From contig NC_134472.1 of the NCBI RefSeq assembly GCF_964194025.1, positions 7,874,001 through 7,938,000 of the forward strand: a DNA stretch of 64,000 nucleotides, read 5' to 3'. Under the pieces are notes generated by a model. The model searched no databases and had not been told where the DNA came from. It saw nothing but the letters and a program-made list of their open reading frames with translations. The translations under genes were made by a program, and so were the position numbers. Positions within the stretch are counted from its first letter, which is position 1, and each line of letters begins with the position of its first letter. This DNA comes from Convolutriloba macropyga. Its lineage: Eukaryota. Below, piece after piece: positions 13,877 to 40,636 of this stretch.

Positions 13877-14515
13877 ATGGTTTTTATATTAGCTGCGAGT
13901 TCACTTCATCACGCCATAAAAACTGCGCCTCAAGTAACACAAAATCGTTACAAACGTAACGTTTACGCATTACCGGGTTTAAGTTTCAACCCTAACGCTT
14001 TGAAAGTCCGAAAAACAGCGCAGTTCCAGTTGAGTCATTTCTTTCATGATAAGAAGCGCCTAGTTATATGGCATGATGTAGTGAACAATTCGCTTTCACG
14101 TCATCGAAGCAACGACAATAAGCCTTTAACACCTTCACAGCTTATTGCAGTGCTTGAAAACTATCAGGAGCGCATAGAAGCTATTGTGTATTGCCCCAGA
14201 GAGGGAACTCCTGATATTTCTGATCAGCTCAAGCGTAGTACTCTAGTTACCATACACTTAGTGAAAGACATTGTGTCTAGACGTAAACAGAAAGATCTTA
14301 GTTTACTCAAAGAGTACAGAGCATTACACCAAAGGCCTGCGCTTGAGCTGAAAACACTGACCATAGTCTTAAATCATAAGAACAACCTCCGGTCCTTGAT
14401 AACACGCTCCCGACCGAAGAAACTTTCAAAGCGCCGTCGTAAAACGCTTCGCACCCGTCATGCGTTCGAGGAGGCGGAACTCACACAAGCCTTTGATAAC
14501 CTGAATGTCACTTAG
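13877..14515 (+). CDS. Extra retrotransposon-borne ORF (212 aa), putative SGNH/GDSL hydrolase-like fold with basic C-terminal tail
   Basis: Intact ATG-TAG ORF inside the element leader; VFILAASSL (block I-like Ser8), YALPG (Gly34), LVIWHDVVNNSL (Asn70/71), VYCPR, YRALH (His151); tail RPKKLSKRRRK. Fold call is pattern recognition only. Confidence 0.6.
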   Translation: MVFILAASSLHHAIKTAPQVTQNRYKRNVYALPGLSFNPNALKVRKTAQFQLSHFFHDKKRLVIWHDVVNNSLSRHRSNDNKPLTPSQLIAVLENYQERIEAIVYCPREGTPDISDQLKRSTLVTIHLVKDIVSRRKQKDLSLLKEYRALHQRPALELKTLTIVLNHKNNLRSLITRSRPKKLSKRRRKTLRTRHAFEEAELTQAFDNLNVT

Positions 14516-14835
14516 TCTTGCGCTGTTTTGGGAGTCTACCCGCTGACTGGCGGTCTGACTTAGTTAACTCACGAGTTACGGGTTAGTTTGTGGTTGGTTC
14601 TCTCCGATAGCGCTTTACTAAACGTTTCGCTCTCCCCATTCTTCGAGTTTTTCACTACCGTCCGTTTTCCGCAGGTTATCTGGTTTCATTTTCCGTTTCC
14701 GTCCTTTTGTTTCCTTGTCACTTTGTTTCCTCCTATCTCCCGTTTATCTGTTGTATGATGTAGTATGTTGAGTTTCTGCTGTAGTAAAATTTCTCTCTGC
14801 TAGTATGCTGGTTTGTTGTGTAGTCTCATTCCTTG

Positions 14836-15188
14836 CTAGGGTGTGACTTAAGTTCATTCTGGAGTTACGGCTGGTTTGTTTCGTGACTTTCACCACACTG
14901 GTTTGCTAGCAATTTGTTGTAGCTTTATTAGTTTTTGTAGTATGTACTTTTGTTGTCTGGGTAGGGTGGTTTGCTAGGGTGTGACTTAAGTTTGTTCTGG
15001 AGTTACGGCTAGTAAAGTTCCTGACCTTTTCGACTTTTGGTTATACTACACTGTTGCCGTAAATTGTTTCATGTTTAATGTTTTGATGCCGTTGTTAAAG
15101 CCCCATAATGATTTGTGCTAGTGTACCTGGCAGTAGCTCGTCTCCTTCTTTCTAGGGTGTGACTTAAGTTTATTCTGGAGTTACGGCT
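14836..15188 (+). repeat. Array of three 37-bp hairpin repeats (14836-14872, 14974-15010, 15152-15188) in the young element leader
   Basis: Consensus CTAGGGTGTGACTTAAGTTTATTCTGGAGTTACGGCT, separated by 101- and 141-bp spacers that differ from each other. Confidence 0.92.
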
Positions 15189-15220
15189 AGCTTGTTTGGT
15201 TGAGTTGTTGCTGTGGTCTG

Positions 15221-16234
15221 TTAGCATCGATCTTCCCGCCTCCTCGCTTGGGGTTTCCGCCCCGCCCGTGCCAGTTTTCCCGTTTCGTCGCGCGCCATCC
15301 GCCCGACTTTTCCGCCCCGCCCGTGCCGTTTTCCCGTTTCGTCGCGCGCCATCCGCCCGACTTTTCCGCCCCGCCCGTGCCGTTTTCCCGTTTCGTCGCG
15401 CGCCATCCGCCCGACTTTTCCGCCCCGCCCGTGCCAGTTTTCCCGTTTCGTCGCGCGCCATCCGCCCGACTTTTCCGCCCCGCCCGTGCCGTTTTCCCGT
15501 TTCGTCGCGCGCCATCCGCCCGACTTTTCCGCCCCGCCCGTGCCGTTTTCCCGTTTCGTCGCGCGCCATCCGCCCGACTTTTCCGCCCCGCCCGTGCCGT
15601 TTTCCCGTTTCGTCGCGCGCCATCCGCCCGACGTTTCCGCCCCGCCCGTGCCATTTTCCCGCTTCGTCGCGCGCTTTTCGCCCGACGCTCCCGTTTGTCC
15701 GTCCGGTTCCCCGTTGCGTCGTGCGTTAATCGTTCGGCGTCTCTTCCCGTCTCCCGTTCTGCCCCCTTTTCGTTTTTCGGCCTGACATTCCTTGCATGTA
15801 TTACGATTGGCGAAATTCTTGAAACCGCAGGAACAGTTCCAATCTCCAGGTCTCCCGCGATTTCCACCACCATCAGCTCCACCGCCAAATCCCCCGGCTG
15901 AACTAGCGCCTGCACCCTCAGGTCGACTCTCTCTGCATTTTCTGCATGAGGTACGATCCATAAAGTTGGTCGATCCACAGGAGCATGTCCATTCTTCCCT
16001 CTGCTCCCGAGCTGCGCCACCTTCAGATTTTCCTCCAAATCCACCTCGGTTTCCCCCGAATCCGCCTTCACTCTCGTCATTTCCTCCGAAGCCACCTCCT
16101 CCAAAACCACCCTCGGCTTTTCTTCCAAATCCACCTCTGTCTCGTCCGTCCCGTCTCCCGTTCTGCCCCTTTTCGCGCTTCCTGCGCACCGTTCTTTCTT
16201 TCTTTCGCCGGGTACTATTGTACTCGACGAACAT
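15221..16234 (-). CDS. Antisense ORF containing a captured RGG/GGFG-rich segment with two RanBP2-type zinc fingers (core about 15776-16148), running into the VNTR
   Basis: WTCSCGSTNFMDRTSCRKC (15935-15991) and RPGDWNCSCGFKNFANRNTCKEC (core 15785-15841), with GGFGG/RGGFG repeats; first ATG at 16234; translation unproven. Confidence 0.6.
   Translation of the reverse strand: MFVEYNSTRRKKERTVRRKREKGQNGRRDGRDRGGFGRKAEGGFGGGGFGGNDESEGGFGGNRGGFGGKSEGGAAREQREEWTCSCGSTNFMDRTSCRKCRESRPEGAGASSAGGFGGGADGGGNRGRPGDWNCSCGFKNFANRNTCKECQAEKRKGGRTGDGKRRRTINARRNGEPDGQTGASGEKRATKRENGTGGAETSGGWRATKRENGTGGAEKSGGWRATKRENGTGGAEKSGGWRATKRENGTGGAEKSGGWRATKRENWHGRGGKVGRMARDETGKRHGRGGKVGRMARDETGKRHGRGGKVGRMARDETGKLARAGRKPQARRREDRC
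15253..15686 (+). repeat. GC/CpG-rich 54-bp tandem repeat, 8 copies
   Basis: Unit TTTTCCGCCCCGCCCGTGCCGTTTTCCCGTTTCGTCGCGCGCCATCCGCCCGAC; two copies have an extra A; the last copy is degenerate. Confidence 0.97.
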
Positions 16235-16369: not shown

Positions 16370-18997
16370 ATGACAACTTTGCAGGACAAATTCAACAAAC
16401 TTTATAGAGCGAGGGCAAAATTAGAGGCTGAACTTTATAACATCTATGGTGAAATTAACAATGCTGTTGATAAGCAAGACAGGAAAGTTAAGATCGAACG
16501 TCTGATTGTGAAGTGCAAAGATGCTTTTACTAGAGTGGTTGATAAGAATGAAGAGCTCTTTGATCTGGCACAGAAGACTGAAGATCCAGACGCTGCCTGT
16601 AAGAATCTTGAGAAATGGTTAGAGACTGTAACAAAGAAAACTGACGAGTTCATTGCTGCTGCTCGAGGGTATATCAATTCGGTCCAAGACAAAGAGAAGG
16701 CAGAGATGTATACCTCTCACCACTCAAGATCAGGTTCGCATATGACTTCCTCAAAAAGATCAAGTCAGCGTCAAAGAGAATTAGAATTATCAAGACTAAA
16801 AAGGGAGGAACTTGAGAAACAACATGAGGCAAAGCTTCGCATTGCTAGACAACGTCTTGAAATTGAAAAACAAACGAAATTGCGGGAATTAGAAATTGAG
16901 CAGCTTGAGGAGGATCATCGCAAGGAAGTAGCTGCTGCAGCCCTTGAGGAAATTGAGTTGATGACAAAATCAGCAACAGACGGGTCTGATACAAGCGAAA
17001 TGAGTGGGCTCTTTACCGAAAGAAGTTCAGTTAAGAGCAAGAAACTTGTTCAAGATTGGGTTAATTCGTCACCGGCCGGGAACATGGCAGATGTTGCAAA
17101 CGAACCGAGTTTGCACTTTTCTGGTTCCATCGCCCAATCCAACCAAGCAATTGTCCAACGACCTTCTTCAGCAAAACTTCCAAAGTCACACTCTAATCTC
17201 AATACTCATGGTCAAGTTGAGGCTAACATCAACCTCCCTGTCCATGAGCCGCAAGAACCAAGTACTAGAACCAATGTAACCAACGATGCACATGTTGCAA
17301 ATGACATCATGCAAGAGCAACGACAGCCTCAATATACGCCTCCACCACCACCAATAAACTTTGGTATGCCTACTCAACTAAACGCCCCAAACACAGCCCG
17401 ACAACTGTCTCAAGCAACAATGCACTTCGATGGTTTACAGTTAGATCATCAATTCCCTCGCAGGGCGAGCATGCCGGGACAGTTGAATTTAACCAGCCCT
17501 CTGCATTCACCTCCTTTAAATGCACTCGCTAATGCTCCGCTAGCACTTAATCCGCAACAGGCACACATAAATGTACCAGCCCCTCCACCCCCCGTTCCAA
17601 ACCCCGCACCACCGCATTTTCCGTTAATCCCACCAGCATTCCGATTTCCTCCTTCCCCGCCACAAGCACTCCCACTACAAGCCACTAACCCCGTGGCGAA
17701 TAATATCAATCTGTTACCCCATTCTCCGCCTGCACCATTCATTTCCTCCGCAATTAATTTCGTACCTCAATTAATTCATCCACCACCCCCACAAAAGAGT
17801 TTTCAGCCCCAAAATTTTGTACCCATAACCCACGCACCTCCCGCTCCTCCAGATCCAAATGTCTGGCGTTTTCCAGCAGCAGTCCCATCTAATGCAGTAC
17901 CACTTGTACGATCATCCGCAAACTTATACACCGTACAACCGGCCCCGTTAATCAACCCTCATATAACTACATCTCACCACTCCTCTCATGTACAAGCAAC
18001 AGCAGTGCCTCAAAATTACGTAACTTCAGATTTCATGCAAGCGAATCCATTTAGTTCCTCCACAGGTATCGCCCCCACCTTTGTCACTCCGATCATTCCG
18101 CCAACGTATGGAGCTACCGTTCCGAACCCGTTGTGTTGGGGTGGCCCGCCGCATCCCACACCTTCGGCTCCTTCTTTGGACTCTGCGGATTTGATAAAGC
18201 AGTTGGCAGAGGCAATTACTTGTAAGAAGAACGATCCACTGCCCGAGTGGAAGTTGTCACAGTACAATGGTGATCCACTGCAGTGGCACGAATGGTTCGG
18301 ACAATTTAAAAGCGCCATAGACGCACAGTCCTTGACTGATGACGTCAAGTTAACATACTTAAAAACCCTTGTAACTGGAAAAGCTAAAACCGCCATCGCT
18401 GAGTTCGCATACTGCGGTGTAATGTATAAGGACGCACTTAAGACACTCGAACGTAAATTTGGCCAACCACAGGCAGTAGTCAGTGCACATTTAGACAAAC
18501 TCAGCTCTTTTCCTCCATTAAAGATGCACAATAGTGATAACATCATAAACTATTCTGCAACAATTTCAAGTCTTGTTGGGGTCTTTAAATCACTTTCATA
18601 TGACGCAGACCTTAAGAGCGCCTCACTTCTCAATACGGCTGTGCAAAAATTGCCGCCCAATCTGAAAGAGTCTTGGTCACTCTTCACAGTGAAGAAACAT
18701 TGGGTTAAGCCAACACTCCTTGACTTCAACGATTGGTTGAAGGAGAAGGCCGAGGCACATGATTTAATGAAACAAACTTCGTCGAAAGCAAGAACTGAGG
18801 ATAACACCAACTCAGTAGTAAAGACCAAAGTTGCCTCAAGAACTTTTGCTGCTAATACACAAACTAAGGGCACTCAGAGACCAGCCTCAACATCGGCAAC
18901 GCCTGCAACCCCCGCTGCATTGTGTGTAAAGGTATCCACCGCATCTGGGAGTGTAGGGTATTTAAAGAAAAGTCTCCCACTCAGCGAGCAAAGGTAG
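16370..18997 (+). CDS. gag: BEL/Pao Gag (N-terminal coiled coil, Pro-rich linker, DUF1759-like capsid domain); natural frame continues into pol after a 1-bp shift near 18910
   Basis: 875-aa ORF; LPEWKLSQYNGDPLQWHEWFGQFKSAID...KLTYLKTLVTGKAK motif. Confidence 0.92.
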   Translation: MTTLQDKFNKLYRARAKLEAELYNIYGEINNAVDKQDRKVKIERLIVKCKDAFTRVVDKNEELFDLAQKTEDPDAACKNLEKWLETVTKKTDEFIAAARGYINSVQDKEKAEMYTSHHSRSGSHMTSSKRSSQRQRELELSRLKREELEKQHEAKLRIARQRLEIEKQTKLRELEIEQLEEDHRKEVAAAALEEIELMTKSATDGSDTSEMSGLFTERSSVKSKKLVQDWVNSSPAGNMADVANEPSLHFSGSIAQSNQAIVQRPSSAKLPKSHSNLNTHGQVEANINLPVHEPQEPSTRTNVTNDAHVANDIMQEQRQPQYTPPPPPINFGMPTQLNAPNTARQLSQATMHFDGLQLDHQFPRRASMPGQLNLTSPLHSPPLNALANAPLALNPQQAHINVPAPPPPVPNPAPPHFPLIPPAFRFPPSPPQALPLQATNPVANNINLLPHSPPAPFISSAINFVPQLIHPPPPQKSFQPQNFVPITHAPPAPPDPNVWRFPAAVPSNAVPLVRSSANLYTVQPAPLINPHITTSHHSSHVQATAVPQNYVTSDFMQANPFSSSTGIAPTFVTPIIPPTYGATVPNPLCWGGPPHPTPSAPSLDSADLIKQLAEAITCKKNDPLPEWKLSQYNGDPLQWHEWFGQFKSAIDAQSLTDDVKLTYLKTLVTGKAKTAIAEFAYCGVMYKDALKTLERKFGQPQAVVSAHLDKLSSFPPLKMHNSDNIINYSATISSLVGVFKSLSYDADLKSASLLNTAVQKLPPNLKESWSLFTVKKHWVKPTLLDFNDWLKEKAEAHDLMKQTSSKARTEDNTNSVVKTKVASRTFAANTQTKGTQRPASTSATPATPAALCVKVSTASGSVGYLKKSLPLSEQR

Positions 18998-21900
18998 TGG
19001 CTGAAGCAAAACTGTGTTTCTCATGTTTGAGAGAAAAGCATATGTTCAGGCAATGCCCAAACCCCAGGAAATGCAGGAAGGACGGTTGCAACAGCTCCCA
19101 TAACACACTTCTTCATGGAGCTGAGAGGGTTTATCCATCAAAATCCCCTCCAAACGGCAACAACAGTAATTCTAATGCTGGCGCAAATCAAAGTAAACTT
19201 CCTAGTGTCCAATCATCGAGTAAGACCACCACTTTGTCATCTGTGAGTAATGTGAAAGGCCTCCTTCAGGTGACTGAATTACAGTTGAAGAGCTCTTCCG
19301 GTAAAGATACCACGGCTTTAGTTTTGTGCGATACCGCTTGCAGTAACTCTTGGGTGTCCAATGATCTTGCAAATAGACTTGGTTTGCACGGTACAGCATT
19401 GAAACTGACAGTCAAGGGTATAAATACCGAGGAGGTTGTAGACACTAAGTTAGTTGAACTAATTGTAACACCACGCGACAACCAAGCATTTGAACCATTT
19501 AAAGTAAACCCTTATGTAAAGGAAGATTTAAATGTAGGCGCCGATGTCATCAACATTAAAGCACTTCAGGAAACATACCCGCACCTAGCAGTCCTAGACC
19601 CAATTACATATTGCTATGGAAACATCGAGATGATACTTGGACAGGATGTGTATCATGCCATCCGCCCGTTAGAGTACTTCGCTGCCGACGAGAAGTCCTC
19701 GCCCTTCGCTGTTCGCTTGCCCATAGGTTGGGTTCTAAGCGGCCCTCTACCGTCGTCTTCAGGTTTAGTCTCGACTTGTTTCAAAGCTAATTTGGAGCAG
19801 GATTTTGAACTCGCTAGTCAGGTAAAATCTTGGTACGACATGGAGTCGTACGGCGCACTTAAGCAAGTAGACCCACGATCCGCATCGGATGCACGTGCGC
19901 ATGAAATTCTTGAAAACACCACCGTGCATAATGGAAAAAGGTACGATGTCGGAATGCTATGGGCTGAAGATAACATCGAACTGCCCAACAATTATTTCTC
20001 AGCGCTTGTTCAATTAAAGTCTTTGGAAAAGCGGCTAACGAAAGATCAGACATTAAGGGAAAAGTACTCGAATACCATCAAAGAGGACTTAGACAAAGGC
20101 TACGTAGTAAGGGTCAAAGATGCGCATAAGGTGGAAAGTCGCTCGGAACGAGAGTGGTACCTACCACACCATCCGGTTGTTAACCCGAACAAGCCGGGCA
20201 AGGTTCGTAGGGTACTAAACGGAGCAGCAAAATTCCATGGCGCATCTCTCAATAAGTCATTACTCACCGGACCTGACCTACTGCAAAACCTAATCTATGT
20301 ACTTCTACGGTTCAGACAACATCCATTTGCCGTATCCGCCGACATTGAGGGAATGTTCCTCCAAGTTGGAGTGTTGCCATGTGATCAACCATCATTGCGC
20401 TTTTTGTGGCGGGAGGACCCCACATCAAATGTTGTGGTACACCAGTATACGCGCCACATCTTTGGGGCAAAAGATTCACCCACCTGCGCCAACTACGCAC
20501 TTCAGCGCACGGCACGCGATAATGCTAAGGAGTACCCAGAAGCTGCGAAAGCCGTCCTTGAGAACTTCTACATGGACGATTACTTGGACTCAGTGGAATC
20601 CCCCGAGAGGGCCCTCATTAGGTCGAAGGAATTGGTTCATCTTCTCCATCTAGGTGGGTTCAAGCTTACTAAGTTTGTAAGCAATGTACCAGATCTGGCT
20701 GACCGAATTGATGGGTCTGCTCAATCCACTGAACCGAAGGTCATCGTTTCATCCAAGGAGGAATCAATGCACGTGCTTGGGCTTAAGTGGGATCACAACA
20801 ACGATACTCTGGTTGTGAGCAGGGGTACTAACAGTACCATCACGAAAAGTTTAACACAGCGCTTGGTCTTAAGTCTTGTGTCAAAGGTCTACGACCCAAT
20901 TGGTCTTGTCGCACCTTTCACTGTTGGTGCTCGGTTAATCTTGAAAGACATTTGGCGTGTCAATGGACAAAGTTGGGATGACGAGTTACCTAAGGACACA
21001 GTTGATAGATTCCTTGCCTGGTGTATTGAACTGCCGCGGTTAGCTGAGATCACTATACCGAGAAGTTACTTTTCAGGACCATTCCAACATCTTGAACTCC
21101 ACATGTTTGGTGATAGCTCGCAAGACGTATTCAGTGCAGTAGGATTTCTTAGGGCTCAAGTGACTTGCACCTCCGGGGAGATTATAACAGAGCTGGCGTT
21201 TGTCTTGGGCAAGGCCCGTGTTGCACCTATGAAGGTAATGACAGTTCCTAAGTTGGAATTACAAGCCGCTCTCCTCGCTGCTCGTTTAAAAAGGGAAATC
21301 TGTCGAGCATTAACGGTTACTGTGGACAAAGTCTTTATGTGGACAGATAGTACCATCGTCTTGCAGTGGATAAACTCAACAAACAAACACCCCATCTTCA
21401 TTGCAAATCGTGTTAGTGAAATCCTGGAGAACACCAGCGTTGACCAATGGAACCACGTCGCCACTTGTGATAATCCGGCAGATGCTGGCACGCGTGGCAT
21501 GTCCGCTGAAGTTTTGCAGTCAAGTAGCTGGGTGAGGGGTCCTGACTTCTTGAGAACTAAGCAATTCCCTTTTGTACCAAATACTGACGTCGTTGATAAC
21601 ATCAAGCTCGGCGTTGTAACCAATGAACAAGACGATGACTCCATCTCATCTTTAGCCGCATCTGTAACCAATTCTCTAAAGGAACAAAGCATTAATCTGA
21701 TCCCGTTTGATAAGTTCAGTTCTTATCAAAAATTACTTCGTGTCACCGCATATGTGCTCCGTCTTTTACCATCTCATGAAAGTTACCGTACCGTAGACGG
21801 CAGCATAGCCGACCCTGTTGAGCTTGACGAAGCCGAGCGTCATCTCCAGTACTTGGTTCAAGGAGAGTCCTTTAGTACTGAAAGAAAGGATCTTCTTGAC

Positions 21901-23193
21901 AACAAATCCGTTAAGAAGAGCAGCCGCATTGCTCAGTTTACTCCGTTTATTGGACCTCATGGTCTCATCCGTTCCTCTGGTCGACTCCGACGGCTAGTGG
22001 AAATCGACTTTGACACTAAGCATCCTATCGTGCTGGATGCGCGTCATTCTTTTGTTAAACTGTTTCTGCGGCATACTCATTTGAAGAACCATCATCAGGG
22101 CATCGATTACTTAAGGTCAAAGGTACAAGAACGTTATGCCATCCTAAAACTACGTTCCACACTACGTTCCATCAAATCAAACTGCGTTTTGTGTAGAAAG
22201 TTCCGTGCAGCAACCATTCAACCTATCATGGCAGACCTCCCAAAGGAGAGACTCGCATACCAGTCTCCTCCCTTTACCAACACCGGGGTTGATTACTTCG
22301 GCCCATTCTACGTCACAGTTCGTCGGACTACCGAGAAGAGGTGGGGATTCCTCTTCACTTGTCTCACTACTCGTGCTGTCCATGTTGAAGTTGTCCCGTC
22401 CATGGACACTAGTTCTTGTGTAATGGGAGTGGAGCGGTTCGTCTCCCGTCGGGGTACTCCTGCTATGATTTGGTCGGATAATGGTACGAACTTCATTGGA
22501 GCGGAGAAAGAGCTCCGTGAATGTGTGGAAAAATGGAATACGCTTAACATCGCTGCCGAACTTGCACATAAGGGCATTAAGTGGAGGTTCAATCCACCCA
22601 GTGCGCCACACCAAGGTGGCATCTGGGAGAGGTTAGTTCGGAGTTTTAAAAGAGTACTGTACACTATCCTCGGTACGCGTCGCCTCACAGATGAGGTGTT
22701 GGACACTACTTTTTGTCTGGTCGAGTACGCACTAAACTCACGTCCCTTAACGCCCGTAAGCGCCGACCCGTCTGACCTAGGCGCAATAACACCCAATCAT
22801 TTTCTACTCGGTAACCAAGCAACCAGAATTCCGTCTATCGTTGGCGTCGACGAGTTCGACCATCGTAAGCGATACGCCCGTGCACAGTCATACGCCAATG
22901 CAATTTGGGCACGTTGGCTCAAGGAGTATGTACCTGCGCTGAACCGTAGATCTAAGTGGCAGAGGCCTGCCGAGCAGCACCTCAAGGTCGGTGATTTAGT
23001 TTGGATCGTTGAAGAAAGCAACCCTAGGGGTTACTATCCAACTGCTCGGATTGAAGAACTTCGGTACGGCTCCAACAGCGTCGCCCGCTCCGCCGTTTTA
23101 CGCACGTCGTCCGGATCGCTCGTCCGCCCACTCGTTAAGCTTGTACCAATCCTCCCAACATTTTCTTCCGGGCCGGAGGATGTTACCGAGTAA
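18913..23193 (+). CDS. pol: BEL/Pao Pol: Cys/His knuckles, aspartic protease, RT, RNase H, DDE integrase
   Basis: About 1425-aa open frame: CIVCKGIHRIWEC, CFSCLREKHMFRQC, LCDTAC, WYLPHHPV, ADIEGMFLQV, YMDD, FGDSS, TVPKLELQAA, HLKNHH..CVLC, GVDYFG, SDNG, IWERL; the stop codon lies inside the 3' LTR. Confidence 0.96.
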   Translation, partial: RCIVCKGIHRIWECRVFKEKSPTQRAKVVAEAKLCFSCLREKHMFRQCPNPRKCRKDGCNSSHNTLLHGAERVYPSKSPPNGNNSNSNAGANQSKLPSVQSSSKTTTLSSVSNVKGLLQVTELQLKSSSGKDTTALVLCDTACSNSWVSNDLANRLGLHGTALKLTVKGINTEEVVDTKLVELIVTPRDNQAFEPFKVNPYVKEDLNVGADVINIKALQETYPHLAVLDPITYCYGNIEMILGQDVYHAIRPLEYFAADEKSSPFAVRLPIGWVLSGPLPSSSGLVSTCFKANLEQDFELASQVKSWYDMESYGALKQVDPRSASDARAHEILENTTVHNGKRYDVGMLWAEDNIELPNNYFSALVQLKSLEKRLTKDQTLREKYSNTIKEDLDKGYVVRVKDAHKVESRSEREWYLPHHPVVNPNKPGKVRRVLNGAAKFHGASLNKSLLTGPDLLQNLIYVLLRFRQHPFAVSADIEGMFLQVGVLPCDQPSLRFLWREDPTSNVVVHQYTRHIFGAKDSPTCANYALQRTARDNAKEYPEAAKAVLENFYMDDYLDSVESPERALIRSKELVHLLHLGGFKLTKFVSNVPDLADRIDGSAQSTEPKVIVSSKEESMHVLGLKWDHNNDTLVVSRGTNSTITKSLTQRLVLSLVSKVYDPIGLVAPFTVGARLILKDIWRVNGQSWDDELPKDTVDRFLAWCIELPRLAEITIPRSYFSGPFQHLELHMFGDSSQDVFSAVGFLRAQVTCTSGEIITELAFVLGKARVAPMKVMTVPKLELQAALLAARLKREICRALTVTVDKVFMWTDSTIVLQWINSTNKHPIFIANRVSEILENTSVDQWNHVATCDNPADAGTRGMSAEVLQSSSWVRGPDFLRTKQFPFVPNTDVVDNIKLGVVTNEQDDDSISSLAASVTNSLKEQSINLIPFDKFSSYQKLLRVTAYVLRLLPSHESYRTVDGSIADPVELDEAERHLQYLVQGESFSTERKDLLDNKSVKKSSRIAQFTPFIGPHGLIRSSGRLRRLVEIDFDTKHPIVLDARHSFVKLFLRHTHLKNHHQGIDYLRSKVQERYAILKLRSTLRSIKSNCVLCRKFRAATIQPIMADLPKERLAYQSPPFTNTGVDYFGPFYVTVRRTTEKRWGFLFTCLTTRAVHVEVVPSMDTSSCVMGVERFVSRRGTPAMIWSDNGTNFIGAEKELRECVEKWNTLNIAAELAHKGIKWRFNPPSAPHQGGIWERLVRSFKRVLYTILGTRRLTDEVLDTTFCLVEYALNSRPLTPVSADPSDLGAITPNHFLLGNQATRIPSIVGVDEFDHRKRYARAQSYANAIWARWLKEYVPALNRRSKWQRPAEQHLKVGDLVWIVEESNPRGYYPTARIEELRYGSNSVARSAVLRTSSGSLVRPLVKLVPILPTFSSGPEDVTE
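23170..23180 (+). promoter_or_regulatory. Polypurine tract
   Basis: GGGCCGGAGGA immediately before the 3' LTR TG. Confidence 0.75.
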
Positions 23194-23575
23194 ACTAAAT
23201 GAGCAACGCGCTATTTAAATAAAGCAGCGAGATAAGTTTATTACGTCATTTTATTCGCGTTCGCTTTACAGAATGCGTGCAAAGCACAGAAAAAGTTCGT
23301 TAAACATAATTTTCGTTGAGCCTACTAATATACTGAATCGATTGCGCTCTTTTTAGGCTTAATATTTTTATGTTACAAAAACGTATCGGTGACCAATCTG
23401 AGCCGAAAATCGGCTCAGACAAAATACCTGCTAGCAAAATACAGATAGATTTGCCGGGCCATTGAGATGTGTTTTTTTGCCTTGATACGTTTAAAAAATA
23501 CAGTTGCTTACTCGACTTTATCGTGGTTTACTAGAGAATTGAAAACGTTCCGATAGACTGTATTCAACAGCTTTA
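23181..23575 (+). repeat. 3' LTR (395 bp)
   Basis: Copy of 12483-12877, followed by TSD CCAAT. Confidence 0.96.
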
Positions 23576-24239
23576 CCAATCCTGGACAGCATTTTCACTT
23601 CTCATCAAGGTCCTAGCACTTACATTTGTTTCAGATTGGCTACCTTTAGAAACGGCGTCCAGCAATTCAAATTCTTGCAGAGTTGCCTCTGCCAACCGTT
23701 TCTTGTTGTTTTCCTCCAGTTCATCTATTTCCATTTGTTTTTTCTGTTTAGCCAGGCGAATGGCTGCCTCATTCTGTTTTTCGATCTCTTCGCGCTTCAT
23801 TTTAGCAATTACGTAATCATGTTTACGCTGACTAGATGTTTTTGAAGAGGCCATAAGTGAGGGAAGTCTAGAACTAAACTCTGGAAATCCTTGGTTCCTG
23901 GAACTCACTCACTTCATCATCAGCAGTGTTGATGTAGTTTCCTGTTGACGTGAGTATCTTGTCGTTCCTAGTTTTCATTGCCTCTAAGTAAGACTCTAAT
24001 GAAGGAACAAGTGCACTTCAATCCTCCGTTTTTCCAGCAAATGCAATCAGGTCCTAATTTTTGTCTACAACAGTCATAAATGCTTCGTTGCACTTTGTTA
24101 CTAGGCGTTCAACTTTCAATCGCCTACTTTGACTATTTATACAATGAAGAATATCTTCATGTATAGCATGCAATTCAGCTTCACGCTTTGACCTGGCAGC
24201 GTACAACTTTTTGTCTTTTTGATCAAGACTATTAGACAT
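23576..24239 (-). pseudogene. N-terminal gag remnant of the old BEL/Pao element
   Basis: MSNSLDQKDKKLYAARSKREAEL...ERLVTKCNEAFMTVVDKN and KREEIEKQNEA...AVQDW align to the young Gag (LQDKFNKLYRARAKLEAEL...ERLIVKCKDAFTRVVDKN...LVQDW). Confidence 0.9.
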
Positions 24240-39628: not shown

Positions 39629-39745
39629 GGTCTTTCCCATTATAGCCCCCATGAAATTATAGCCCCCCATTATGGTATAGTTGCCATGATTGGGGGGCTA
39701 TAGTTTAGCTGACCCCTAAACTGGGGGGCTATAATGGGAAGAACC
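39629..39745. mobile_element. Small MITE, probably in the 5' UTR intron of RSU1
   Basis: TIRs GGTCTTTCCCATTATAGCCCCC / GGGGGCTATAATGGGAAGAACC; near-TSD CAGATTTTCT/CAAATTTTCT; relative at 59141-59217. Confidence 0.75.
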
Positions 39746-39796
39746 CAAATTTTCTGCGTTCATTTTTCTGCTTCACTTTTGTTCTTTCAGTTCAAA

Positions 39797-40636
39797 ATGT
39801 CGTCAGTAAAGAGCGTAATGAAAGACCAACTTGACAAAATCCGAAGAGGTGAATCCAGACAACTAGTGATTGTCGATATGGATGTACACAACATGGTTGA
39901 TATACCCAATACTCCGGAGTTTCAAATAATGAGACAAGGACTCACTAAAATCAACTGTGCCCATAACAAAATTCCCGAGATTCCGGCGTCATTCTGCAGC
40001 TTGGAGAATCTGGAATATCTGAATTTCACTAACAATAAAATAGTCAGTCTACCAGCCAACCTGTGCACGATGCCGAAGCTGAAACATCTTTACCTCGGTT
40101 GCAATAGAATTGATACATTGCCCAAAGGATTCGGATCTTTCCCTGCACTGGAAGTGCTAGATTTGTCTTACAATAATTTGAGAGAGCAGTCATTGCCAAG
40201 GAATTTTGATATGCTATCTGGGACATTGCGCGCTCTTTACTTGGCTGATAATGATTTCCAGCGTGTTCCAGAGAGTATTTGCAGGTTGGTTAATCTGGAA
40301 ACCTTGTCATTTCGCAATAATGACTTGATTGAGCTCCCAAACTCACTATCGAACTTGAAGAAATTGAAGGAATTCTTCATCGAAGGCAACCGTCTAGAAT
40401 ATTTGCCTCTAGGCTTTGGCGAGCTCCATTTTGATGACGTCAACCAGTCCATCTTTCGCGGAAAAGACAACCCATGGTGTAAATCTTTGAAGGATCAGTT
40501 CCTTCTTGGACAGCATCATGTGGTGAATCACATCAGGAGCGACAACTATAATGCCGAGCTATCGCGCTTTCTAAGTGCATCGGCAAGAAATCTGCAGCCA
40601 ATCCCGGATAAAAGCAAAAAAGCCAGCAGAAAATAA
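39797..40636 (+). CDS. RSU1: Ras suppressor protein 1 (LRR protein), 279 aa, uninterrupted CDS
   Basis: LPKGFGSFPALEVLDLSYNNL.E.SLP, LRALYLADNDF, NPW...DQFLLG..HV, DKSKK.SRK all match RSU1; ATG 39797 follows the acceptor TTTCAG at 39790. Confidence 0.93.
   Translation: MSSVKSVMKDQLDKIRRGESRQLVIVDMDVHNMVDIPNTPEFQIMRQGLTKINCAHNKIPEIPASFCSLENLEYLNFTNNKIVSLPANLCTMPKLKHLYLGCNRIDTLPKGFGSFPALEVLDLSYNNLREQSLPRNFDMLSGTLRALYLADNDFQRVPESICRLVNLETLSFRNNDLIELPNSLSNLKKLKEFFIEGNRLEYLPLGFGELHFDDVNQSIFRGKDNPWCKSLKDQFLLGQHHVVNHIRSDNYNAELSRFLSASARNLQPIPDKSKKASRK

Follow-up and report, generated by a model that had tools for sequence, protein, structure and literature searches.

The window analysed here is a 64,000-nucleotide stretch of the Convolutriloba macropyga genome (assembly GCF_964194025.1, contig NC_134472.1, positions 7,874,001 to 7,938,000), and it holds an LTR retrotransposon of 11.1 kb whose two LTRs are 100% identical and which is bounded on both sides by a CCAAT target duplication (Table 1). 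Between the 5' LTR and gag lies ORF0, an unbroken ATG-to-TAG frame of 212 codons (13877-14515, plus strand) that begins 1 kb after the LTR and stands 1.85 kb ahead of gag (16370). The original prediction had described a clean 212-codon sense ORF in the AT-rich leader of a BEL/Pao element, placed 5' of gag rather than in the env position, and this description holds: the frame is uninterrupted, the GC content over 13001-14000 is 35%, and both the domain order and the lack of any ORF after pol agree with the class and position proposed.

Table 1. Features of the ORF0-bearing element, in window coordinates
Feature	Position	Strand	Remarks
5' LTR	12483..12877	+	TG...TA ends; CCAAT target duplication at 12478-12482
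Primer-binding-site-like motif	12881..12890	+	read from the sequence; similar motif after the LTR in most copies
Copy-specific insert ('capture slot') behind the primer site	12894..13381	+	sole genome match is itself
T-run with terminal AG, 94 nt upstream of ORF0	13764..13782	+	candidate splice or trans-splice acceptor
ORF0, 212 aa	13877..14515	+	SGNH-fold domain (residues 1-173, predicted) and basic tail (174-212)
Non-coding spacer	14756..15770	+	three repeats of about 58 nt and a 54-nt tandem array
gag (DUF1759)	16370..18997	+	gag-pol frame broken near 18.9-19.0 kb in the window copy
pol part	19042..23193	+	aspartyl protease, RT, Peptidase_A17, integrase (Integrase_H2C2), DUF5641
3' LTR	23181..23575	+	followed by CCAAT at 23576-23580

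The element is a BEL/Pao retrotransposon, as identified by its LTRs, its target duplication, a gag with DUF1759, Peptidase_A17, an integrase and DUF5641. BEL/Pao LTRs are expected to end in TG...CA, whereas those of the window element and of eight other copies end in TG...TA, which leaves an assignment made from gag-pol unaffected. The TG...TA ends were accompanied by 5-bp duplications in 8 of 10 other copies, and the retrieved DNA of the remaining two held no LTR pair. A single gag-pol frame of about 2280 codons is present in 13 of the 35 identical-RT copies. The window element has no env ORF in the interval from pol to the 3' LTR, and with nothing downstream of pol an env-like role for ORF0 is ruled out. 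Part of the spacer is common (71%) to a sister BEL family that lacks ORF0. The primer-site motif, which we take to be of the tRNA-His type, varies strongly from copy to copy, as does the LTR sequence, despite near-identical RT (window 12483-12877; loci L081-L100). The whole element is enclosed by a second, minus-strand BEL element (23577-~27200 and 6300-12482) whose RT is 85% identical to that of the window element; the family of this enclosing element is without ORF0, yet has a variable slot of like kind behind its LTR.

Copies of the element were sampled through an RT search, in order to keep ORF0 itself from driving the choice. The resulting 40 loci comprise 33 of the 35 identical-RT matches, the two left out being the window copy and one copy at a contig end, together with seven lower-ranked matches. 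ORF0 is full-length at 33 of these loci, partial at one and unmatched at six, five of which also lack the 5' end of gag. A direct genomic search with ORF0 gave 3372 first-look candidates, distant relatives included, and all 150 of those scored were 91-100% identical. Across 30 loci ORF0 lies between the LTR and gag-side sequence (two of them, L011 and L023, had no gag match inside the flank), which rules it out as a nested foreign insertion. Among the full-length copies, 21 are fully open, three have a stop at the last codon alone and nine are broken, each at a different site; two of the open copies are without S8 or H151. Disruption in most copies, the outcome that the original prediction had set against itself, is therefore not what is seen. 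The rate of breaks per codon looks higher than that of gag-pol, as expected for an accessory gene, in a comparison that is biased by the selection on RT.

In addition to being intact, ORF0 is constrained. Over 29 distinct RT-selected copies, with the partial copy L186 and all copies chosen by protein similarity kept out, pN/pS is 0.217 (codon bootstrap 0.148-0.308), well below 1; the other two sense frames over ORF0 in the same copies give 1.18 and 1.49, and the first 100 codons of gag give 0.119. A set of 27 flank-selected copies returned a similar ORF0 ratio of 0.25, and close pairs from LINEs, with few sites, spread from 0.35 to 2.08 (dN/dS). ORF0 is thus a stable part of a young, high-copy BEL/Pao family and is under purifying selection. 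It could be argued that the ORF is a neutral passenger from a LINE RNA that has been amplified with the element and has yet to decay, given that cellular RNA 5' ends are demonstrably captured by these elements (see below), that the sister family multiplies without ORF0, and that 9 of 33 copies are broken. However, alleles found in at least three copies have an N/S ratio of 0.18 (47 synonymous, 29 non-synonymous and 0 stops), and between BEL families pS is saturated (0.81-0.87) with the protein still 41-79% identical. We consider neutral passage highly improbable and largely refuted.

The ORF0 product is almost certainly, by its predicted structure, an SGNH-fold protein with an alpha/beta/alpha architecture and a five-stranded central sheet. 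A profile search collected 907 clusters (50% identity) at E <= 0.001, and from the 150 of these that were listed we built an alignment of 123 rows (the ORF0 product P0001, five earlier matches and 117 of the longer sequences in that listing), in which homologues are about 30-50% identical. With this alignment AlphaFold returned a model with a pLDDT of 96.9; a single-sequence model (pLDDT 36) was discarded. The model has five strands (residues 3-6, 29-31, 62-64, 100-105 and 125-127) flanked by helices within residues 1-173, followed by a helical tail. SGNH proteins lead all three structural searches, in line with the divergent SGNH protein originally predicted, with which the conservation of Ser, Gly, Asn and His also agrees. 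In the wide structural search (VIA), OatA came first (Z 10.4, rmsd 3.4, 139 residues aligned), and the first clearly unrelated match appeared at Z 6.8; matches 1-49 are, in part by their titles, presumably all of SGNH/GDSL type, and they include CE2 structures (Z 7.6-8.2), Oskar OSK (Z 8.2) and a viral haemagglutinin-esterase. Foldseek placed PAF-AH and GDSL lipases on top with probabilities of 0.99-1.0 and a best E of 2.5e-3, that is, none at E <= 0.001, and with TM scores of only 0.44-0.51 and identities of 10-14%. In the ESM Atlas the homologue P0135 reached a score of 0.92 against a GDSL-lipase cluster in which 46% of members carry PF13472, and P0001 itself only 0.77, against clusters without names. 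A structural alignment to E. coli thioesterase I (TAP; 1IVN) pairs ORF0 1..173 with 3..179, and a BFVD fold search gave weak phage SGNH/hydrolase matches (best E 6.2e-3). A structural Z of about 10 is middling, and a fold match by itself says nothing on function. The ZfL2-1 esterase structure (4C1B) is not among the matches listed in the fold searches, a non-appearance that carries no weight.

Sequence searches placed ORF0 in no known family. Pfam gave no SGNH match for any of the 123 members, a profile search of PDB sequences gave none either, and P0001 queried by itself yielded nothing useful in Pfam, the PDB sequences or the Atlas. Among viral contigs 19 pattern matches included no relative, and a cluster look-up of 10 homologues brought up no names. 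What emerges is a large SGNH family, defined here by its 907 clusters, that is missed by Pfam and is without the catalytic acid.

The motifs S8, G34, N70/N71, P107-R108 and H151, noted beforehand as an SGNH-like series, are all present and in order, and alignment of the family refines two of them. Conservation is 93% for S8, 92% for G34, 92% for H66, 84% for N70, 92% for N71 and 92% for H151. Block by block, ORF0 has AASSL, LPGLSF, HDVVNN and LHQR against the GDSIV, FPGARV, HVGTND and LHPS tabulated for ZfL2-1 (PMC10792757). In block I, S8 follows strand 1 and the preceding Asp is replaced by Ala, the family motif being GASSL; in block II, G34 stands in a PG motif, as in ZfL2-1 FPGARV; block III is HDxxNN in the register of HVGTND, with the Gly of GxND lost; and in block V, H151 precedes the last helix of the domain and has Pro (43%) or Gln (39%) behind it. 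Of the two asparagines proposed for block III, N70 falls in the register of the oxyanion Asn and N71 does not. Similarly, of the 'PR' placed after strand 4, R108 is conserved (87%), but P107 is found in only 7%; strand 4 itself ends in a conserved Tyr105/Cys106, and the transposon-specific Ser of ZfL2-1 is S228. Provided that the alignment to 1IVN has no gaps near its ends, S8 coincides with Ser10, and H151 coincides with His157.

Block I Asp occurs in 0 of 112 full rows and the DxxH acid (position 148) is D or E in only four of them, so that a His151 without its Asp, as read from the single sequence, proves general, and the catalytic Asp is absent across the whole ORF0 family. The S8-H151 pair is intact in 98 of the 112 rows; S, G, H66, N70 and H151 occur all together in only 70. 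D67 (93%) and E157 (87%) are candidate substitutes for the missing acid, and H66, four residues before N70, matches by motif register the His (H191) that is conserved only in transposon esterases (PMC3905857). By its modelled fold and four residues, ORF0 belongs to the SGNH superfamily and stands outside the canonical triad enzymes.

Is such a protein still an enzyme? The CE2 esterases include SGNH enzymes that are active with a Ser-His dyad (PMC9487903), and we regard it as likely that ORF0 is catalytic too, as a predicted enzyme working by its Ser-His pair. An SGNH pseudo-enzyme that binds RNA in the manner of Oskar OSK, and that chaperones or localises the element RNA, for example in the germ line, would fit the loss of both aspartates, the high pI (10.7) with its conserved basic tail, the place of Oskar among the structural matches, and the partnership with three unrelated structural proteins, which a generic RNA partner would explain. 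Yet Ser, His, Gly and Asn are among the most conserved residues of the family, a pattern that is difficult to account for unless the protein does chemistry; Oskar is reported to be without catalytic activity, and the isolated ZfL2-1 esterase is reported to have bound no oligo-A RNA (both PMC3905857). A pseudo-enzyme therefore seems to us improbable, and we retain the reading of ORF0 as a predicted esterase.

ORF0 is not confined to BEL elements: it is also the first ORF of LINEs with a PHD-type ORF1 and of a Penelope-like element. At 20 divergent loci picked in this genome, ORF0 heads LINE-type sequence in 16 and other BEL families in four; the latter stand 5' of gag, which settles whether homologues occur in BEL elements, as had been asked. 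At one of the 20, a second ORF0 copy precedes a Penelope-like ORF with RT, PHD and GIY-YIG domains. Among 18 metagenome loci, ORF0 lies before a zinc-finger ORF1 and an endonuclease-RT ORF2 in two, before an ORF1-like gene in five, before a BEL gag in one and after GIY-YIG ORFs in two, with eight giving no context. The LINE labels of L109, L111-L114 and L162 come from ORF1 similarity only. In BEL, LINE and Penelope-like contexts alike, a separate ORF encodes the SGNH domain from residue 1 onward, and no fused or longer form was found among 7991 candidates, which is weak evidence. Since the same ORF heads classes of mobile elements that are unrelated to each other, it has likely been borrowed as a helper, and since these classes have unrelated replication chemistry and structural proteins, its job would be generic, be it at membranes, with RNA or in host defence.

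Several further arrangements were observed. At L146:6004-9263, the ORF behind ORF0 is 867 aa long and combines RT with an internal PHD finger and a GIY-YIG nuclease, and this Penelope-like element has an unusual domain order. At L117:149-4208 and L115:29-1766, a divergent SGNH ORF lies about 0.7-1.3 kb 3' of a GIY-YIG ORF, which in L117 is fused to a PIF1 helicase. In the window itself, the minus strand carries four decayed SGNH-family remnants (6299-5958, 27500-27186, 29818-29522 and 32333-32037), the first of which precedes a broken LINE (5636-3004) and the other three of which lie within a 2.3-kb triplicated unit; the plus strand carries a leucine-rich-repeat ORF of 300 aa (39734-40636).

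Phylogenies suggest how ORF0 came to be shared. In a tree of 42 ORF0 rows, eight BEL rows and one row without known context form a starred clade (96/89), and the LINE rows are far more diverse; this tree has no root, long branches and a backbone that is not resolved. For LINEs, the ORF0 and RT trees give the same starred groups (16 rows), which indicates that ORF0 is old in LINEs. The RTs of the BEL families that carry ORF0 group with those of the sister family in a single clade (99); row L226 of this RT tree is a mix of two elements and unreliable. No ORF0 was found at 20 other BEL loci, and none of 20 loci of the multi-copy sister family had a credible match, which supports the earlier designation of ORF0 as an accessory factor and makes this family a natural comparison. 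A weak profile match (E 0.001) at the sister-family loci L171 and L175 was rejected, as it reads through stops and lies inside the variable slot. The simplest reading is that ORF0 was likely gained once in this BEL clade and then lost in the sister family. We think it fairly probable that a LINE was the donor, a direction proposed from an unrooted tree.

A possible route for such a transfer is offered by the variable slot behind the primer site. The slot holds inserts of 300-740 nt that change from copy to copy, and 37 rows (L183-L220, L081-L099) gave 32 unrelated inserts. For the insert of the window copy (about 490 nt), contig depth was low and flat in four runs, and searches by DNA, protein, Pfam and PDB found no source. 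Only 3 of the 32 inserts have a Pfam match, and two were traced to their source, one of them in full. The L219 insert consists of a spliced-leader-like motif and four segments of the host gene ATAD3, 99-100% identical and with the introns absent, and it is present in four element copies; at the point where the element has the leader-like motif, the host gene has a T-rich AG acceptor. This insert is the captured spliced 5' end of a host mRNA. The L215 insert encodes F-actin capping protein beta, occurs in seven copies and has parent-like pieces at 83-89%, and the L190 insert holds a Usp domain. In one pair from another ORF0 family, both members have the same slot content.

The leader-like motif is also found in front of LINE copies of ORF0. 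Its 3' end lies 25-139 nt before ORF0 at 13 of 19 LINE loci (L143-L161, L113) and at none of six BEL loci; it matches no family in Rfam. With this putative spliced leader just before ORF0, the LINE RNAs appear to begin with ORF0, that is, to be trans-spliced with ORF0 as their first ORF. Capture of the 5' end of a LINE RNA in the slot would place ORF0 in the sense orientation before gag. It is tempting to speculate that the retroelements of this genome pool an Asp-less SGNH first ORF, and that one BEL lineage routinely swaps the 5' ends of capped, trans-spliced cellular RNAs into its fixed slot while it replicates, through which ORF0 entered from a LINE RNA and was kept; we put this forward as a tentative scenario, somewhat less likely to be right than wrong. 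LTR-mediated retroposition is known as a rare event (PMC5131818). If the scenario is true, the slot is a high-frequency gene-sampling step built into the life cycle of an LTR element and no rare accident, and if the slot is general, it would make LTR-mediated gene copying measurable at scale and explain why an ORF landed 5' of gag.

How ORF0 is expressed bears on the same leader. The leader contains 13 ATGs ahead of ORF0, and 13 more lie between ORF0 and gag, so that both ORF0 and gag probably need RNA processing or internal initiation. A two-codon upstream ORF (13859-13867) ends 9 nt before the ORF0 start. The T-run ending in AG is present in 37 of 39 rows (two rows being one locus), cross-copy conservation is continuous from it onward, and the 121 nt upstream of ORF0 fold no better than shuffles (z -0.33). 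We slightly favour the view that ORF0 is translated once its RNA has been spliced or trans-spliced at 13782.

As for function, a role at membranes or in the RNP may be envisaged by analogy with ZfL2-1, a suggestion that we hold at a little short of even. The ZfL2-1 esterase is active, has a pI of 10.8 and binds anionic lipids by charge, and it adjoins an arginine-rich motif linked to RNA binding (PMC3905857); homologues of ORF0 have a median pI of 10.4 (123 sequences). ORF0 would direct the RNA or the particles of the element to anionic membranes, where it would cut acyl esters, and its basic tail would replace the arginine-rich RNA-binding motif of ZfL2-1 ORF1p. The predicted NLS-like tail was indeed found, at residues 179-194, and perhaps it serves nuclear import instead, with ORF0 as a nuclear deacylase or other eraser acting against host silencing. 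The conservation of R188 (86%) and of the family-specific polar residues W65, D67, H76, Y105, R108, S134 and E157, which suggest a distinct substrate, would suit such an eraser. On the other hand, basic tails fit RNA or membrane binding as well, the ZfL2-1 esterase is reported to lack histone deacetylase activity (PMC3905857), and no SGNH silencing suppressor was found in the literature searched; we judge a nuclear eraser unlikely. Taken as a whole, our evidence inclines us, if only modestly, towards a selected SGNH-fold BEL gene whose product would act as a Ser-His esterase and accessory at membranes, and which entered BEL in a single gain from a LINE RNA's 5' end.

Transposon esterases are already known; the 5' position in a BEL element and the Asp-less family were not found in print. 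The literature searched, with Repbase and most subscription papers outside its scope, described neither a BEL/Pao esterase, nor a separate esterase ORF before gag or before an ORF1 of the PHD type, nor a capture slot at a fixed place. Nor did it describe an Asp-less transposon SGNH family, with the supplementary alignments of PMC3905857 and PMC4120745, which possibly bear on membership, likewise outside that scope; the word 'esterase' is absent from the portion of PMC2774666 available. Partial parallels exist. LTR-mediated retroposition (PMC5131818), which includes a mosquito BEL case, likewise places partial spliced host mRNAs in LTR elements and recopies them; those cases are described as rare, in variable places and replacing part of the element ORFs, whereas the ORF0 BEL family has inserts in most copies, in a fixed slot and with gag-pol in place. 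The platyfish Helitron (PMC4021074) also carries an SGNH hydrolase, but is a DNA transposon. CE2 esterases (PMC9487903) share an SGNH fold without the block V Asp; they are microbial carbohydrate enzymes, however, and no sequence-level kinship to ORF0 was found.

Closer in setting is ORF3 of the bdelloid Vesta elements (PMC5408684), a stand-alone SGNH accessory in an LTR retrotransposon that is also common to Penelope-like elements and whose activity, like that of ORF0, is unproven. Vesta ORF3 occupies the env position behind pol in non-BEL lineages, whereas ORF0 is 5' of gag in BEL/Pao. As described there, Vesta ORF3 keeps the invariant residues but shows no clear departure from neutrality and clusters apart from LINE esterases, in contrast to ORF0, which is under clear purifying selection and is common to LINEs.

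The closest relatives in design are the esterases of LINE ORF1p (PMC3905857, PMC4120745, PMC13343379). With the esterases of ZfL2-1 ORF1p, CR1, L2, RTEX and Penelope elements (4C1B; PMC3905857, PMC10792757), ORF0 shares the order and spacing of the SGNH blocks (Ser to His 143 residues, against 139), the block III His (H191, corresponding to H66), a very basic protein, a 5' place in the element and a patchy spread over element classes. The ZfL2-1 esterase, however, forms one domain of ORF1p, where it follows a coiled coil, and its Ser-Asp-His triad is complete, whereas ORF0 is a separate ORF without a coiled coil and without both aspartates, its basic stretch is C-terminal, and it stands before gag in an LTR element and, in LINEs, before a separate PHD-type ORF1. 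The role of the esterase in retrotransposition has been an open question since ZfL2-1, where it was dispensable in a HeLa assay (PMC3905857), and ORF0 adds to it a small, single-domain SGNH member kept by selection in three element classes. By this analogy, ORF0 most plausibly works like a LINE esterase, without being of the ORF1p type.
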